From Candidatus Bathyarchaeota archaeon (GTDB lineage Archaea; Thermoproteota; Bathyarchaeia; Bathyarchaeales; Bathycorpusculaceae): 64,000 bases of DNA. The notes under the pieces were generated by a model that was given only the letters and a program-made list of their open reading frames with translations, made no database searches and was not told the origin of the DNA. A program made the translations under genes and the position numbers. The stretch covers positions 1,024,001-1,088,000 of the forward strand of contig CAWFFH010000003.1 in NCBI GenBank assembly GCA_963815095.1, given 5' to 3'. Positions 34,227 to 39,638 of the stretch are shown piece by piece (positions within the stretch are counted from its first letter, which is position 1; the number at the start of each line of letters is the position of its first letter).

Positions 34227-35555
34227 TTGGTGATTATGAGAAAAGGTTTGGTCTTAGCGGTTGTTCTCGTCTTCCTAACAGCATCATCCACAATCTTGGC
34301 TTTGCCTGTTTCTGGAGCTTCTGCCAATGAGAATACTTGGGTAGATTTAGCACCTATGCATATAGCAAGAGCATGGTTGGGAGTCGCAGCAGTAAACGAA
34401 AAAATCTATGCAATTGGCGGTTCAACCGCAAGCGGATTTGAACCAGCGTCATTTCCTTATGGAAATATTAATGCAGACCATTTTGTCGCCACAAACGAAG
34501 AATATGACCCGACCAATAATATTTGGAGTTACAAAGCACCAATGCCTACTCCCCGAATGGCTTTCGCGATAGCCGAATTTCAAGGCAAAATTTACTGTAT
34601 AGGCGGCAGAAGTGTAGCTGGTATGTCAGGCGGTTATACTTCTGTAAATGAAGTGTATGACCCAGTTACCAATACTTGGGGAAACAAAGCTCCAATGCCA
34701 GTTGCCAATGGTTGGATAGAAGCAAAAGTCATTGACAATAAAATCTATATCAGAAACAGTCTTCCAAATACCTCAGGCATAAATTATGTTTATGACCCAA
34801 CATCCGATAAATGGAATAGTTCAGTCCCAACTCCACAAGACGGAAAATTATTGCTAGATTACATTCCTAATGGTTATGAAACTACAGGGATAATGTCTCC
34901 TAAGATGGTTTACACTTTTAATAGAGATTTTAGTTCAAACATTGACGTTTATAATCCTGAAAACGACAGTTGGAAAAATGGTGTTCCGAGACCTTTAGAA
35001 CGTTATGGGTTCGGGGTGGCAGTTTCGAATGACATCTTTTATGTTGTAGGAGGTTACACTTACAGTTTCATTGGCAACTTTGCTCCCTTAACGGCAAACG
35101 AGGAATACATTCCATTTGGCTATGGTACCCCTGATTCGACATATGTGCTGGAGCATGCTCCACCTGAAATGACATTTAGGTCACCGCTAAACCAAACTTA
35201 TAACGATTCAATCATTCCGATCATTTACACAGTTAACAAGAATTTAACATCTTCAGATTACAGTTTGGACGGGCAACAGAACATTACCATAACTGGCAAT
35301 ACTACACTCACAAGAATACCTAATGGCACACACAACCTAGCAATCTACGCTAATGATTCATATGGAAATACAGGCAGTCAAACAATCAATTTCACAGTTG
35401 AGAAACCAGAGTCAAAGTCCTCTCCTACCGGTTCAGTTGCTGTTATTTCTGGAATAACGGCTGTAGTTGTTGTTATTGTTGCTGCTAGTTTGCTGTTGAT
35501 CTACTACAAGCGCAAACGTAGTTTAGTCAAGAAACCTTTACGAAAAACCTCTTAA
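34227..35555 (+). CDS. Kelch-repeat surface protein with Ig-like domain and TM anchor
   Basis: Repeated KIYxIGG...EEYDP...W...APMP; YSLDG..N.TI.GN domain; C-terminal TM. Confidence 0.85.
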   Translation: MVIMRKGLVLAVVLVFLTASSTILALPVSGASANENTWVDLAPMHIARAWLGVAAVNEKIYAIGGSTASGFEPASFPYGNINADHFVATNEEYDPTNNIWSYKAPMPTPRMAFAIAEFQGKIYCIGGRSVAGMSGGYTSVNEVYDPVTNTWGNKAPMPVANGWIEAKVIDNKIYIRNSLPNTSGINYVYDPTSDKWNSSVPTPQDGKLLLDYIPNGYETTGIMSPKMVYTFNRDFSSNIDVYNPENDSWKNGVPRPLERYGFGVAVSNDIFYVVGGYTYSFIGNFAPLTANEEYIPFGYGTPDSTYVLEHAPPEMTFRSPLNQTYNDSIIPIIYTVNKNLTSSDYSLDGQQNITITGNTTLTRIPNGTHNLAIYANDSYGNTGSQTINFTVEKPESKSSPTGSVAVISGITAVVVVIVAASLLLIYYKRKRSLVKKPLRKTS

Positions 35556-35599: not shown

Positions 35600-36853
35600 T
35601 TGAAGAAAAAGGCTATAGGCATATCGTTGGTCTTAGCGCTTCTATTTTCATTAGCAGCTGGAACGTCACTTGTTGATTTAACATACGCTAATCCCATCGC
35701 ACCACGCAGTTATCCTCAAATAACAATTAACAGTGATGGTAGCATAACACCACCAACTGCGCCCATAAACCGCACTGGAAACGTTTACACGCTTGCAGAA
35801 GATTTGCTTGAACAAACAATTGTGATATATCGGAGTGATATAGTGTTTGAAGGAGCCGAACACACTATTAGTGTCCCGGAAAAGCCGGGGAGCGGTTTTG
35901 TTTATCAAACGATTGGCATATGGCTGATGCCAGACGAGCATGCAGCTGGTGTAATTAATAGAAAAAATGTAATTATAAGAAACCTGACGGTTCTGGGGAC
36001 TGTTGAAGTTTATTGTGGGGATAACTGTCAAATCGAAAAAGTCAATGCAAAAAATATTTGGGTAGATGGCAATTCCAACACGATAAAAGATAGCGCCTGC
36101 GGAGTAGGATTAAGCAATAACGCAAGAAATAATGTGATTACAAGAAACAACATAAACTCTTTGTGGGTCGGCAATGATTGTTACTCTAATAAATTTTATC
36201 TAAACAATTTCAATCTAACTGAATACCCAGGAGTATTCAGCACGATTTCTTGGGATAATGGGGACATCGGCAATTTTTGGAGCAACTACACAATAAAGTA
36301 TCCTGATGCCATAGAATTAGGCAATTCTGGAATCGGTAACATACCATACACTATCGAAAAAGAGTACCTTACAAGTCAATTAGAAAGACAATATGGAGGG
36401 CTAGCTAACGTCACATTTATGAGTCTTGGTTATGTCCCGCTTGTTGATCGTTTTCCACTAATCTATCAATGGGGAGCTCCACGAGTGATTCTACTCAACC
36501 TTGAAAATCTTACATCCTCTGAGCCTCTTGCCCTCAACTTTTCAGTCAGCAAGCCAGTTGTTTGGACAGGATATAGTCTTAATGGCGGAGAAAACACAAC
36601 TATCGCAGGCAACACTACTATCAACAGCTTAACAACAGGTTCTCATAACATAACAATCTACGCTAAAGACACCTCTGGAAATATTGGCGCTTCAGAAACT
36701 TTCAGATTTGAAGTTGCCCCAGAGTCCATTTTAGCCGGAGCCTCAGAGTCCTTGCCAATTTTAACGGTTGTCGCTGTTTCCGTAGTTGCTTTTGCTTTGG
36801 TGGCTTCTGGTTTGTTGCTTTTTAGACTATATGAAAGACGAGTGAGAAAGTAA
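35600..36853 (+). CDS. Right-handed beta-helix (NosD/CASH-like) surface protein with Ig-like domain and TM anchor; native tail displaced by the IS
   Basis: ITINSDGSI..APINRTGNVYTL, WDNG.IGNFWSNY, DRFPL; native end RHRKLVELRKLEN* is at 38101-38142. Confidence 0.85.
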   Translation: MKKKAIGISLVLALLFSLAAGTSLVDLTYANPIAPRSYPQITINSDGSITPPTAPINRTGNVYTLAEDLLEQTIVIYRSDIVFEGAEHTISVPEKPGSGFVYQTIGIWLMPDEHAAGVINRKNVIIRNLTVLGTVEVYCGDNCQIEKVNAKNIWVDGNSNTIKDSACGVGLSNNARNNVITRNNINSLWVGNDCYSNKFYLNNFNLTEYPGVFSTISWDNGDIGNFWSNYTIKYPDAIELGNSGIGNIPYTIEKEYLTSQLERQYGGLANVTFMSLGYVPLVDRFPLIYQWGAPRVILLNLENLTSSEPLALNFSVSKPVVWTGYSLNGGENTTIAGNTTINSLTTGSHNITIYAKDTSGNIGASETFRFEVAPESILAGASESLPILTVVAVSVVAFALVASGLLLFRLYERRVRK

Positions 36854-36979
36854 CTCTTGCTGGCTAGTCCGGTGCCTTCTTGGCCCTTGCGGCCGATTTT
36901 TAGACTGGGCTTGACCTGAGCTGCTATAGAACTGGGCATTCGCCCGTATGAGAGATTGCAGCCTGAAAGCCAGCAGGAG
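36854..36979 (+). ncRNA. Predicted bridge RNA/seekRNA of the IS110-family element
   Basis: Closing stem plus two internal-loop hairpins whose loops match the target (8/8 and 8/8) and the donor junction (8/8 and 5 nt). Confidence 0.85.
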
Positions 36980-36990
36980 AAAGAAAAAAA

Positions 36991-38037
36991 ATGGTGAGAT
37001 ATGTAGGAGTAGATGTTGGCAAAGCCAAATGCAGAGCAGCAATAATGAATCAAACCGGCGCCATCGAGAGCGAATTCTTCTTTGAAAACAACACTAAAGG
37101 AATAGAGTCTTTGACGTCTATGCTAACTGTTGAGGATCAGGTTGTTATGGAATCTACAGGGAATTTGTGGCTAAGCATATACGATGCATTGGATAATAGA
37201 AGCATTAAGGTAGTGCTGGCTAATCCATTGAAGACTAAAGTGATAGCTTCAGCGAAAATAAAAACTGATAAGGTGGATGCTAGGATTTTGGCGCATTTGC
37301 TGAGAGCTGATCTTGTTGCTGAAAGCTATGTTCCGCAAGGAAGCATACGTGAAATGCGAGGTTTAGTTAGGCATAGGCTGAGCTTGGTTAGAATGCGCAC
37401 GGCTATAAAGAACAAGGCACATGCAATCGTTGACAAGTATAGTTATCGTTGTGAATTCTCAGATATGTTCGGTAAAGGTGGAATTGCTTGGATGAGGTCA
37501 CTGATACTTAATGAGCTTGATAGACTGATTTTGGAAAACCATCTTTCGCTGATTGAATCTATTAACTTGCAGGTCGGGATGGTGGATAAAGCTATTCGAA
37601 AAATCGCTTGTGAGGATGAGGATGTTCGGTTGCTACTTAGCTTGACTGGTGTTGATGTTTATGGTGCATTGTTGATTCATAGTGAAATTGGTCCGATAAC
37701 GCGGTTTAGTAGTTATAAGAAGTTGATTTCTTGGGCTGGTTTGGCTCCGTCGGTGCATCAATCTGGGAATGTTGAGTATACTGGTAGGATTACTAAGCGT
37801 GGTTCTAGCTTGTTGAGGTGGGTTATGGTTGAGGCTGCGAGGACTGCTGTGCAGTATCATGAGAAATTGGCTGGGTTTTATGAGCGTGTGAGGGCTAGGC
37901 GTGGTGATCAGAAGGCTGCTGTTGCTGTTGCTTGTAAGATGCTTAAGATTGTTTGGTTCATGCTAAGTAGGCGTGAGGTCTATAGCTGTGCTAATACGAG
38001 GCGTTATGGAGAAAAGCTAAAAAAGATTGGTGCGTAG
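36991..38037 (+). CDS. IS110-family transposase/recombinase
   Basis: DEDD RuvC-like motifs (VGVDVGK, MESTG, KTDKVDA) and Tnp20 domain AGLAPSVHQSG. Confidence 0.96.
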   Translation: MVRYVGVDVGKAKCRAAIMNQTGAIESEFFFENNTKGIESLTSMLTVEDQVVMESTGNLWLSIYDALDNRSIKVVLANPLKTKVIASAKIKTDKVDARILAHLLRADLVAESYVPQGSIREMRGLVRHRLSLVRMRTAIKNKAHAIVDKYSYRCEFSDMFGKGGIAWMRSLILNELDRLILENHLSLIESINLQVGMVDKAIRKIACEDEDVRLLLSLTGVDVYGALLIHSEIGPITRFSSYKKLISWAGLAPSVHQSGNVEYTGRITKRGSSLLRWVMVEAARTAVQYHEKLAGFYERVRARRGDQKAAVAVACKMLKIVWFMLSRREVYSCANTRRYGEKLKKIGA

Positions 38038-38153
38038 TTTGGTTTACTGGCTTTCAGGATAAGTTGGTCGCTGGCTTAGAGAACCGTCTTTCATGAGAGA
38101 AGGCATCGAAAACTCGTTGAATTGAGGAAGTTAGAGAATTAAACCCAAGTTAA

Positions 38154-39638
38154 TCAAATACATTGATGCATTGGCAGTCGGTGTCTTCTTTGCACAATTA
38201 TTAACAAAGCGGCTATTGTAACCAGGGCAACAATAATTAGCGACAAAGCTTCATTAGGCATTTCTGGAACCGAAGAAGCCTCAGGCATATCTGGCACCGA
38301 AGAAATCTTTGCCCCGCTCAGATCGAACATTATATTGTGTGAGCTATGGTGATAGTAAAAGTGCAGTATCCAGCTGTCCTCTGTTGAGGTTACAGTATAG
38401 GAAACTGGGTTATCATCAATATAGGCTTGGATGGATGAAACATTCTCAACAAGGCTTCTGCTAACACAGACATCGGCATACCCCATAGTTCCACTCAGCC
38501 CCGTTACTGAGAAGCTTAACTGGGCATTAGCCGAATCAAACGATAGGTTAGCCACGGTAGAGTTGGAGTCCACTGAAAATACAGTTTGTGATTGATTGCC
38601 GCTTGGGGCTGTGATTAGAACGGGAACGGCTTTGAAGACAAAGCTAGTTGTTGAGCTTCCCCAATAGGTTGCGTTAATCAGGTAGTTGCCTTCCGTTGAA
38701 GGTGACCAGTCGATGGAGTAGCTTCCATTTGTGGAAGTGTTTGTAGAGCCGATAAAACGCCATATTGGTTCGCCGATTTGTTGATAGGAGAATTCTATGA
38801 TTGCCTGCGGTATACCTGTGCCATATAATGATAGGGTGCCGAAAACTTGTATGTTGCCATTGGAGCCTTCACTCTGGCAGTTAACCGATAACGAGGACAT
38901 TCCAGGGTGAGAAGAGTCAACTGTTGGGGGCGGCATCACGGAGGAGTTGCCTTGTCCCGAAGCGTAAATTGCAACAACCTCGTTGTCGATGTATTGTAAG
39001 GAACTCAAAGTTGAGGGGAACGAGGTGCTGTTTAAATTGCATCTTGCACGCTGGGAAGATTCTACGAATTGGTCTTCGTTTATATGAATATTGGGGCCTT
39101 GCACAACAGCAGCCAACCAGTATGTACCTGCCTGTAGAGATATGGGGGATGCGAAATTTAGTGTTTGGAATTCGTCTAGTGTCAATGCAATGTTGTCAAC
39201 TGGTTTGCTGATAGTGTCCAATTCGGTTTGCCCAATTAGTTCTCCTATTTGTCCGTTGTTGTCACTATAAATTGCAAACCGGTAAGTGCTGTCTTCATCC
39301 TTTTCGTTGATAGAGTACCCAATGTACATTTGGCATGACATAGAAGTGATTGTTGCAGCCCCGTTGAGCTGGAAGAGTGAAGCACTAAAATTTTCGTTGT
39401 CCCCTCCATGAGCCAAATAAGGATAACCAAGGATGGGTTTATCGCCCTGTGCAGAGGTACCTTGTATAACGCCAAATGCTGCGGATACCAAAAGTAAGGC
39501 AACTAAGAATGCAGGAGACCATGAATGGTTATTCAAGTTTGTTTTCTCACTGTACTTTCTTGTGACGTTAGTAATACATTTTACTGTAGAACCAATATAA
39601 CAAAGAAAAATGGGGGTTGCGCGGGTGGATTTCTCCAT
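38154..39638 (-). CDS. Secreted surface protein with Ig-like domains and PEF-CTERM-like anchor (true start probably about 100 nt inside)
   Basis: Signal peptide AFLVALLLVSAAFG; VPDMP/VPEMP, then TM and basic tail. Confidence 0.75.
   Translation of the reverse strand: MEKSTRATPIFLCYIGSTVKCITNVTRKYSEKTNLNNHSWSPAFLVALLLVSAAFGVIQGTSAQGDKPILGYPYLAHGGDNENFSASLFQLNGAATITSMSCQMYIGYSINEKDEDSTYRFAIYSDNNGQIGELIGQTELDTISKPVDNIALTLDEFQTLNFASPISLQAGTYWLAAVVQGPNIHINEDQFVESSQRARCNLNSTSFPSTLSSLQYIDNEVVAIYASGQGNSSVMPPPTVDSSHPGMSSLSVNCQSEGSNGNIQVFGTLSLYGTGIPQAIIEFSYQQIGEPIWRFIGSTNTSTNGSYSIDWSPSTEGNYLINATYWGSSTTSFVFKAVPVLITAPSGNQSQTVFSVDSNSTVANLSFDSANAQLSFSVTGLSGTMGYADVCVSRSLVENVSSIQAYIDDNPVSYTVTSTEDSWILHFYYHHSSHNIMFDLSGAKISSVPDMPEASSVPEMPNEALSLIIVALVTIAALLIIVQRRHRLPMHQCI

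Follow-up and report, generated by a model that had tools for sequence, protein, structure and literature searches.

How does an insertion sequence of an uncultured archaeon find its place in the genome, and to which of the described kinds of RNA-guided recombination system does it belong? The question is raised by a window of 64,000 nucleotides (nt) from Candidatus Bathyarchaeota archaeon (assembly GCA_963815095.1, contig CAWFFH010000003.1, positions 1,024,001 to 1,088,000 of the forward strand), which carries at 36826-38097 an IS110-family element of 1272 bp, with a 2-bp core, AG, on both sides. Coordinates are those of the window and features lie on the + strand unless stated otherwise. An initial annotation, made from the letters alone, had proposed that the element encodes an upstream bridge RNA matching its own target and donor, and all the coordinates and letters that it gave are correct on re-check. 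We find that the element is very probably an autonomous IS110-family insertion sequence that moves by bridge-RNA-guided recombination. Because four concordant insertions in the host genome are accompanied by covariation of guides and flanks in about 80 orthologs, the reading of its RNA as a two-loop bridge RNA, and with it the proposal of the initial annotation, is strongly supported. Judged from its DNA, the element is genuine and recently active; that the RNA is made, that the protein binds it, that a circle forms and that the recombination chemistry takes place we infer from the family. We regard the element as a true bridge-RNA element that departs modestly from a known system, in a layout that mixes features of both described subtypes.

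The host genome (2.69 Mb in 9 contigs, 98% complete) is archaeal, as its small-subunit (SSU) rRNA scores 1486 bits on RF01959 and this model wins the clan competition. It contains four copies of the element, 100% identical over 1271 bp, with open reading frames (ORFs) and guides intact, and a profile search of the genome finds no PF01548 gene beyond these four. Other copies had been proposed by the initial annotation as a check on the target, and all four (4/4) bear it out, lying in TTTTTAG|AAGGC in the same orientation with AG at both joints. Identity of the flanks extends over at least 7+7 nt (left (T)TTGCTTTTTAG, right AAGGC(A/G)), and the sequence beyond is unrelated; one motif with unrelated outer flanks in four copies therefore represents four independent insertions. 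In the window, the left target half (36818-36823) lies within the ...LLLFR codons of a surface-protein gene and is followed by the left copy of the core (36824-36825), at least 36818-36825 being identical in 4/4 copies, and the right copy of the core (38098-99) together with the right target half AAGGCA occupies 38098-38105, with AGAAGGC in 4/4 copies. Insertion is oriented and site-specific, with a short core shared by target and donor and without classical target duplication, as in the IS110 family. In this host, the site corresponds to codons for LLLFR|RHRK, located where surface-protein membrane anchors end on the cytoplasmic side. Three of the four insertions fall in these codons, at the end of the C-terminal anchors of Pfam-less surface proteins, the three anchors being paralogous, and the fourth occupies a non-coding remnant of this motif. 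The exact 13-mer empty site has 0 occurrences elsewhere in the 2.69-Mb genome, and 16 versions with one mismatch are present. An unoccupied near-cognate site with 1 mismatch is seen on the minus strand of contig C4 at ~5461, where the downstream codons match those beside the copy L003.

The RNA that would read this site is found in the left end. From the left boundary to the ATG of the recombinase gene there are 164 nt, which fold into an outer stem around two modules, and a 127-nt bridge RNA (36852-36978) matches our covariance model R1 with 123.2 bits (E 4.7e-35). The minimum-free-energy fold of 36827-36990 yields the outer stem (36854-65 with 36968-79) and both stem/internal-loop/hairpin modules, the target module at 36866-36911 and the donor module at 36920-36962, exactly as they had been drawn in the initial annotation; its energy is -54.3 kcal/mol (z -2.61), and 2 of 200 shuffles are as stable. 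Model R1 was built from 56 distinct aligned upstream RNAs with the outer stem added by hand. RNAalifold lost this stem on a MAFFT alignment, A1, owing to a register shift of 1 nt at the 3' end, and the realigned set, A2, supports it. On A2, 98.0% of cells are paired and compensatory changes occur in 15 of 26 pairs, a result equalled by 0 of 500 shuffles, with slid controls paired at 22-41%; A2 was fitted to the model structure, which favours such pairing counts and is to be held against them. R1 matches 81 of 100 archaeal or metagenomic sources, all on the + strand and directly upstream of the recombinase gene. Among the 19 sources that R1 does not match, 11 loci are cut inside the gene and the other 8 (L016-L023) are mainly Methanomassiliicoccales and Thermoplasmatales records. 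At E<0.01 the model also matches 11 of 60 mostly bacterial sources; the RNA architecture is thus shared by bacterial relatives and not confined to archaea. The long non-coding end of these elements carries, in short, a structured RNA in which the stems are conserved and the loop strands vary.

Do the variable strands follow the DNA in which each element resides? In the window, the 5' guide of the target loop, TGCCTTCT (36873-36880), is the reverse complement of 38098-38105 at 8 of 8 positions, and the 3' guide, TTTTTAG plus A (TTTTTAGA, 36897-36904), equals 36819-36826. By an arithmetic estimate, one given 8-mer is found in a 127-nt RNA with a chance of ~0.002; three such matches are present, the third in the donor loop, and as each of them falls in a loop strand they are beyond chance. 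For the orthologs, element ends were set by the sub-terminal repeat on the left and by the repeat plus CATGAG on the right, or by CATAG plus one base in a diverged branch. The right flank agrees with the reverse complement of the target-loop 5' strand at a mean of 6.49 of 8 positions over 53 unique combinations, compared with 3.20 in mismatched pairings, and 44/53 own pairs reach at least 6/8 vs 43/2594 mismatched ones. Likewise, the left flank agrees with the target-loop 3' strand at a mean of 6.57 of 8 over 61 combinations (mismatched pairings 3.09), with at least 6/8 in 54/61 own vs 35/3076 mismatched pairings. There are 43 distinct guides per side. The strands of the target loop are complementary to both target strands and vary with the target.

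The second loop faces the element itself. Its 3' guide, ATGAG-AG-A (ATGAGAGA, 36948-36955), equals 38093-38100 and reads as the right end, the core and the first base of the left end, that is, the predicted circle joint. The initial annotation had taken the AGA of this junction as a 3-nt core; comparison of orthologs corrects this to a 2-nt core, AG (36824-25 and 38098-99), after which the element begins with a conserved base, usually A (36826). The core is AG in 51 ortholog rows and TG in 30. The 3' guides of target loop and donor loop carry the same core in 81/81 rows, and the core in the left flank agrees with that of the donor 3' guide in 75/77 rows and the core in the right flank in 60/62. 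The right-end 5-mer written in the donor 3' guide is the real right end in 60/62 rows, across lineages with ATGAG, ATAGG and ATAGA. The 5' guide of the donor loop, TATAG (36925-36929), is complementary at 5/5 positions to CTATA (36827-31), bases 2-6 of the element, which make up the right-donor stretch, and the 3 nt that follow it, AAC, do not pair with the core. This guide weighs against our reading, matching over only 5 nt in the window, missing the core and tracking the left end weakly in the orthologs (3.9/5 vs a null of 2.6/5). Guide and left-end bases 2-6 nevertheless change together in several lineages (TATAG/CTATA, TAAAA/TTTTA, TAAGG/CCTTA, TACCT/AGGTA), so that the second loop matches the donor clearly in its 3' strand and weakly in its 5' strand.

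The short and weak match of the donor 5' guide speaks for an RNA that guides target choice alone. Such an RNA would recognise the target halves that flank the resident copy, the protein would read the ends through the sub-terminal repeats, and the second loop would be structural or guide in part. The ends of the element lend this some colour. The left end consists of a terminal extension ACTAT (36826-36830) and a sub-terminal inverted repeat ATGAAAGACG (36831-36840), which a repeat search pairs at 10/10 positions with 38085-38094, and the right end of the repeat CGTCTTTCAT plus a 3-nt extension GAG (38085-38097); in the orthologs the repeat is conserved as TATGAAAGRC on the left and GYCTTTCATGAG on the right, and is thus nearly invariant across elements with 43 target guides, as would be expected of a protein site. 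In addition, PMC11187229 describes IS1111-type RNAs by their target matches and shows flanking target halves to be important for excision. Yet the donor-loop 3' strand follows the right end where it shifts from ATGAG to ATAGG or ATAGA (60/62 rows) and the core where it shifts from AG to TG (81/81), and the donor 5' guide varies with left-end bases 2-6 in several lineages. We therefore consider it improbable that the RNA guides target choice alone, and return to the two-loop bridge RNA.

The gene that follows the RNA (36991-38037) encodes a recombinase of 348 aa with a DEDD RuvC-like domain, a coiled coil and a Tnp domain. It matches PF01548 (DEDD_Tnp_IS110; E 4.6e-28, 98.4 bits vs a cut-off of 29) and PF02371 (Transposase_20; E 1.2e-21, 77.3 bits vs 21.3), and the nearest solved structures are the recombinases of IS621 (8wt6, E 7.5e-15) and ISCro4 (9t56, E 3.1e-14). 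Residues D8, E54, D93, D96 and S258 (HQSGN) align with IS621 D11, E60, D102, D105 and S241, the catalytic residues whose roles in IS621 are treated in PMC11208158 and which stand there in the motifs GiDtak, iEatG, ktDtvDa and yeSGs. The Pfam domains, the archaeal SSU rRNA and the nearest relatives, from metagenome-assembled genomes (MAGs) of Bathyarchaeia, agree with the assignment to an IS110-family element in an archaeon, and the compact recombinase of 348 aa plus about 126 nt that had been annotated corresponds to an ORF of 348 aa and an RNA match of 127 nt.

Given these parts, movement of the element may be pictured as follows. The RNA of ~127 nt from the left end (36852-36978) would fold into the outer stem enclosing two modules, and the 348-aa DEDD/serine recombinase would assemble on it, presumably as a tetramer by analogy with IS621. 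An excised circle, with the joint ...CATGAG-AG-ACTATATG..., would be brought together with the site TTTTTAG|AAGGCA, and strand exchange at the AG core would yield a simple insertion, oriented and bordered by AG at either end.

Is the element still capable of these steps in its present host? It might be a relic, immobile here, its four copies and their RNA remaining from a past burst. No exact free site is left in the genome, and in four DNA runs (soil metagenomes of one study, kept as contigs), in which contigs end at the element boundaries and the loose ends are the flanks of other copies, neither a circle joint nor an empty site was seen. These runs were contigs, however, and contigs lose rare forms; moreover, no difference separates the four copies over 1271 bp, their ORFs and guides are intact, and the near-cognate site on contig C4 is free with one mismatch. 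A relic is accordingly quite unlikely, less likely even than guidance of target choice alone. As for recognition of the site by the protein only, with the similarity between non-coding region and flanks a by-product in which RNA takes no part, nothing specific speaks in its favour and it is scarcely credible, as it fails to explain how each of 43 different loop sequences follows its own flanks and how compensatory changes keep the stems paired, in a family experimentally shown to use such RNAs (PMC11208160, PMC11187229).

Further points have to be set against bridge-RNA-guided recombination, beside the donor 5' guide and the missing circle joint and empty site already mentioned. Guides and flanks match poorly in 9/53 right-flank and 7/61 left-flank combinations, including L084 and L009, and the complement of the core in the target 5' guide agrees in 52/80 rows, partly because of alignment offsets. 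A search of 36500-38400 with Rfam 15, at E up to 10, returned no bridge-RNA family and 4 chance-level matches to miRNA, snoRNA and lncRNA models, and the single RNA run among the 20 runs listed contained 0.05 of the sampled words.

Some orthologs deserve mention of their own. The protein of L084 (RNA at 299-425) is 98% identical to that of the window and the locus carries the guides of the window at a poorer site (left 6/8, right 4/8), which may be an off-target insertion or a flank that changed later. The right junctions of L117 and L009 have 4-5 extra bases between the right end and the match to the target-loop 5' guide, and in L009 the core positions of the target-loop 5' guide disagree with the other three guides. 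In most orthologs the left end reads A-CTATATG or A-CTTTATG, ~23 nt before the RNA start and overlapping the sub-terminal repeat (in the window, 36826-36853); the TATATG or TTTATG resembles an archaeal TATA box, conceivably that of the RNA.

To which subtype, then, does the element belong? As described in PMC11187229, IS1111-type elements have sub-terminal repeats of 11-13 bp with extensions of 7 bp on the left and 3 bp on the right, an RNA downstream of the recombinase gene and a guide order opposite to that of the IS621 type; exceptions given there are ISMtsp17, which belongs to the IS1111 cluster and has an upstream non-coding region, and ISHvo10 and ISAcp5, which are diverged and have long non-coding regions on both sides. 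Our element has a perfect 10-bp repeat with extensions AG+ACTAT (7, the core being counted on the left) and GAG (3), and the guide that is complementary to the top strand lies 5' of the guide for the bottom strand, both as in the IS1111 type. Its RNA, in contrast, lies upstream (36852-36978), the downstream non-coding stretch being 60 nt (38038-38097), and its recombinase falls outside the clade of IS4321, an IS5075-like copy and ISShdy1, with a partial alignment to IS4321 (61 bits in BLASTP, residues 118-331 of the window protein). With the IS110 group (IS621/ISEc21 type) it shares an RNA placed upstream, in the left end, but in that group the 5' loop strand pairs with the bottom strand and the repeats are absent or 2-3 bp, whereas here the order is the opposite and the repeat 10 bp. 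Two controls accord with the IS1111 rules: the 7/3 rule gives an IS4321 copy of 1327 bp, and in the downstream region of an IS5075-like copy the match to the top-strand complement lies 5' of the other match.

When 37 recombinases are placed in a quick maximum-likelihood tree, IS4321, the IS5075-like copy, ISShdy1 and their relatives group in one clade with 99% support in the Shimodaira-Hasegawa-like approximate likelihood ratio test (SH-aLRT). The clade of the window element (26 rows, 98% support) lies on the side of IS1000A, and a branch with 95% support parts it from the IS4321 clade. The tree has few anchors, long branches and a midpoint root, results from a quick search and was computed without sequences of IS1111, ISMtsp17 and ISHvo10; that the clade is not canonical IS1111 is for these reasons only a hint.

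These results also narrow down what is unusual in the element. The initial annotation had listed an archaeal host, IS1111-type 7/3 repeats combined with an upstream non-coding region, and a right guide lying 5' of the left guide. The host is indeed archaeal, yet archaeal IS110 recombinases have been described before: a preprint (10.1101/2024.06.21.599552) lists 662 of them and attributes them to several horizontal transfers, and the archaeal ISHvo10 is named in PMC11187229. The combination of repeats and upstream region is present as well, but the 7/3 spacing is the IS1111 norm and upstream exceptions such as ISMtsp17 are known. The guide order does not hold as an unusual trait, since according to PMC11187229 it is normal for the IS1111 type, and we reproduce it in the IS5075-like copy.

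Comparison with individual systems leads to the same mixture. Like IS621 of the IS110 group, as described in PMC11208160 and PMC11208158, the element has the same two Pfam domains with aligned DEDD and Ser residues, an RNA encoded in the left end ahead of the recombinase gene, in which the target loop precedes the donor loop, guides that include a 2-nt core, and a donor that is the joint of right end and left end. Unlike IS621, it has the guide strands reversed in both loops, sub-terminal repeats of 10 bp rather than 2-3 bp and a core AG, or TG in orthologs, rather than CT, and its protein is of low similarity (E 7.5e-15). ISEc21, also of the IS110 type, resembles it in its upstream RNA and in a target within a coding motif that is conserved among paralogous genes, and differs in having the opposite guide order and no long sub-terminal repeats (PMC11187229). 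The IS1111 group (ISEc11, ISKpn4, ISPa11, IS4321/IS5075; PMC11187229) shares with it the 7/3 sub-terminal repeats, the guide order, a recombinase in the class of 330-350 aa and the use of a repeated sequence as target, and differs in an RNA downstream of the recombinase gene where that of the window lies upstream. ISMtsp17, ISHvo10, the latter archaeal, and ISAcp5, which we compare by their description in PMC11187229 only, likewise combine sub-terminal repeats with an upstream non-coding region; section 6 of that paper gives no guide analysis for these three.

One further feature of the right end bears on how the element may be regulated. Just past the stop codon of the recombinase gene, the motif CTGGCTTTCAGG (38047-38058) is complementary at 12/12 positions to 36962-36973, the linker of the RNA and the 3' strand of its outer stem. 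When right end and RNA are compared in 50 orthologs, their longest exact complementary stretch is at this position in 26. On alignment A3 the mean duplex energy is -22.1 kcal/mol for own pairs, -19.5 for foreign pairs and -10.5 for shuffled right ends, and 47/48 own pairs reach -12 kcal/mol or better vs 319/960 shuffles. When right end, core, left end and RNA are folded as one molecule, a long-range closing helix forms in 8 of 9 cases. In transcripts running across the joint of right end and left end, the segment could close the RNA; it could instead pair the 5' and 3' untranslated regions (UTRs) of the mRNA, and a role as a DNA site is also possible. The conserved pairing of the right end with the 3' segment of the RNA represents a concrete candidate for regulation. 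We offer, tentatively and with doubt prevailing, the broader idea of a third layout, in which geometry and repeats of the IS1111 type are combined with an upstream RNA and a separate recombinase lineage (Bathyarchaeia, haloarchaea and several bacterial phyla), and in which the right-end segment is able to replace the 5' strand of the outer stem in joint-crossing transcripts or to engage in UTR pairing, and so might act as a switch that ties RNA maturation or translation of the recombinase to the state of the element.

The mechanism is already established from bacteria, and what is new here is the layout that mixes subtype features; the value of the element is therefore mainly comparative. Bridge-RNA variants have been surveyed in large atlases that cover the intergenic DNA of bacteria and archaea (10.64898/2026.10.21.760802). 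Our literature search found no paper analysing an archaeal bridge RNA or this mosaic layout, and the supplements of PMC11208160 and PMC11187229 may list members of the clade. The clade shows that the guide order goes with long sub-terminal repeats regardless of the position of the RNA gene and, in a small tree, of membership in the canonical IS1111 recombinase cluster, which helps to trace the descent of the two subtypes from one another. The clade also amounts to a set of ~43 natural "reprogrammings"; the system is compact (348 aa and 127 nt), and its rules are simple, a 2-nt core and ~6-7 nt on each side. The hosts are uncultured archaea of soils and sediments.

How widely the recombinase is distributed can be seen from its relatives. 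The closest, at 57-75% identity, come from Bathyarchaeia and from MAGs labelled "Nitrososphaerota", a second tier at ~40% from Thermoplasmatota and haloarchaea, and a third at 33-37% from planctomycetes, acidobacteria, actinobacteria and others. A protein search returned 1612 relatives at E<=1e-20, for which the sole name is the generic 'IS110 family transposase', and a scan of metagenomes added 80 further loci at 40-98% identity. Copies on haloarchaeal plasmids are 37-46% identical to the window protein, and one match of a tblastn search against plasmids bears the depositor label IS1328-like. Bacterial members are larger, with proteins of 400-480 aa, elements of 1.9-2.8 kb and a core gene flanked on either side by long stretches; the recombinases of the bacterial relatives L025-L083 have a C-terminal extension of 50-130 aa. 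A pair of acidobacterial elements has the same geometry with a core TA and a different sub-terminal repeat. L056 and L058 encode identical recombinases in MAGs labelled Methanocellaceae and Bryobacterales, which points to a binning error or else to a very recent transfer.

The element of the window lies among genes for Pfam-less proteins of secreted or surface type, each with a signal-like N-terminus, a C-terminal membrane anchor and a basic tail (34227-35555 and 35600-36853 on the + strand, 38154-39638 on the - strand). Annotation of this genome has to take account of three surface-protein genes that the four copies truncate or re-tail. The gene at 35600-36853 is an example of the latter: the left end of the element supplies an in-frame LYERRVRK followed by a stop codon, so that the product retains a basic tail.

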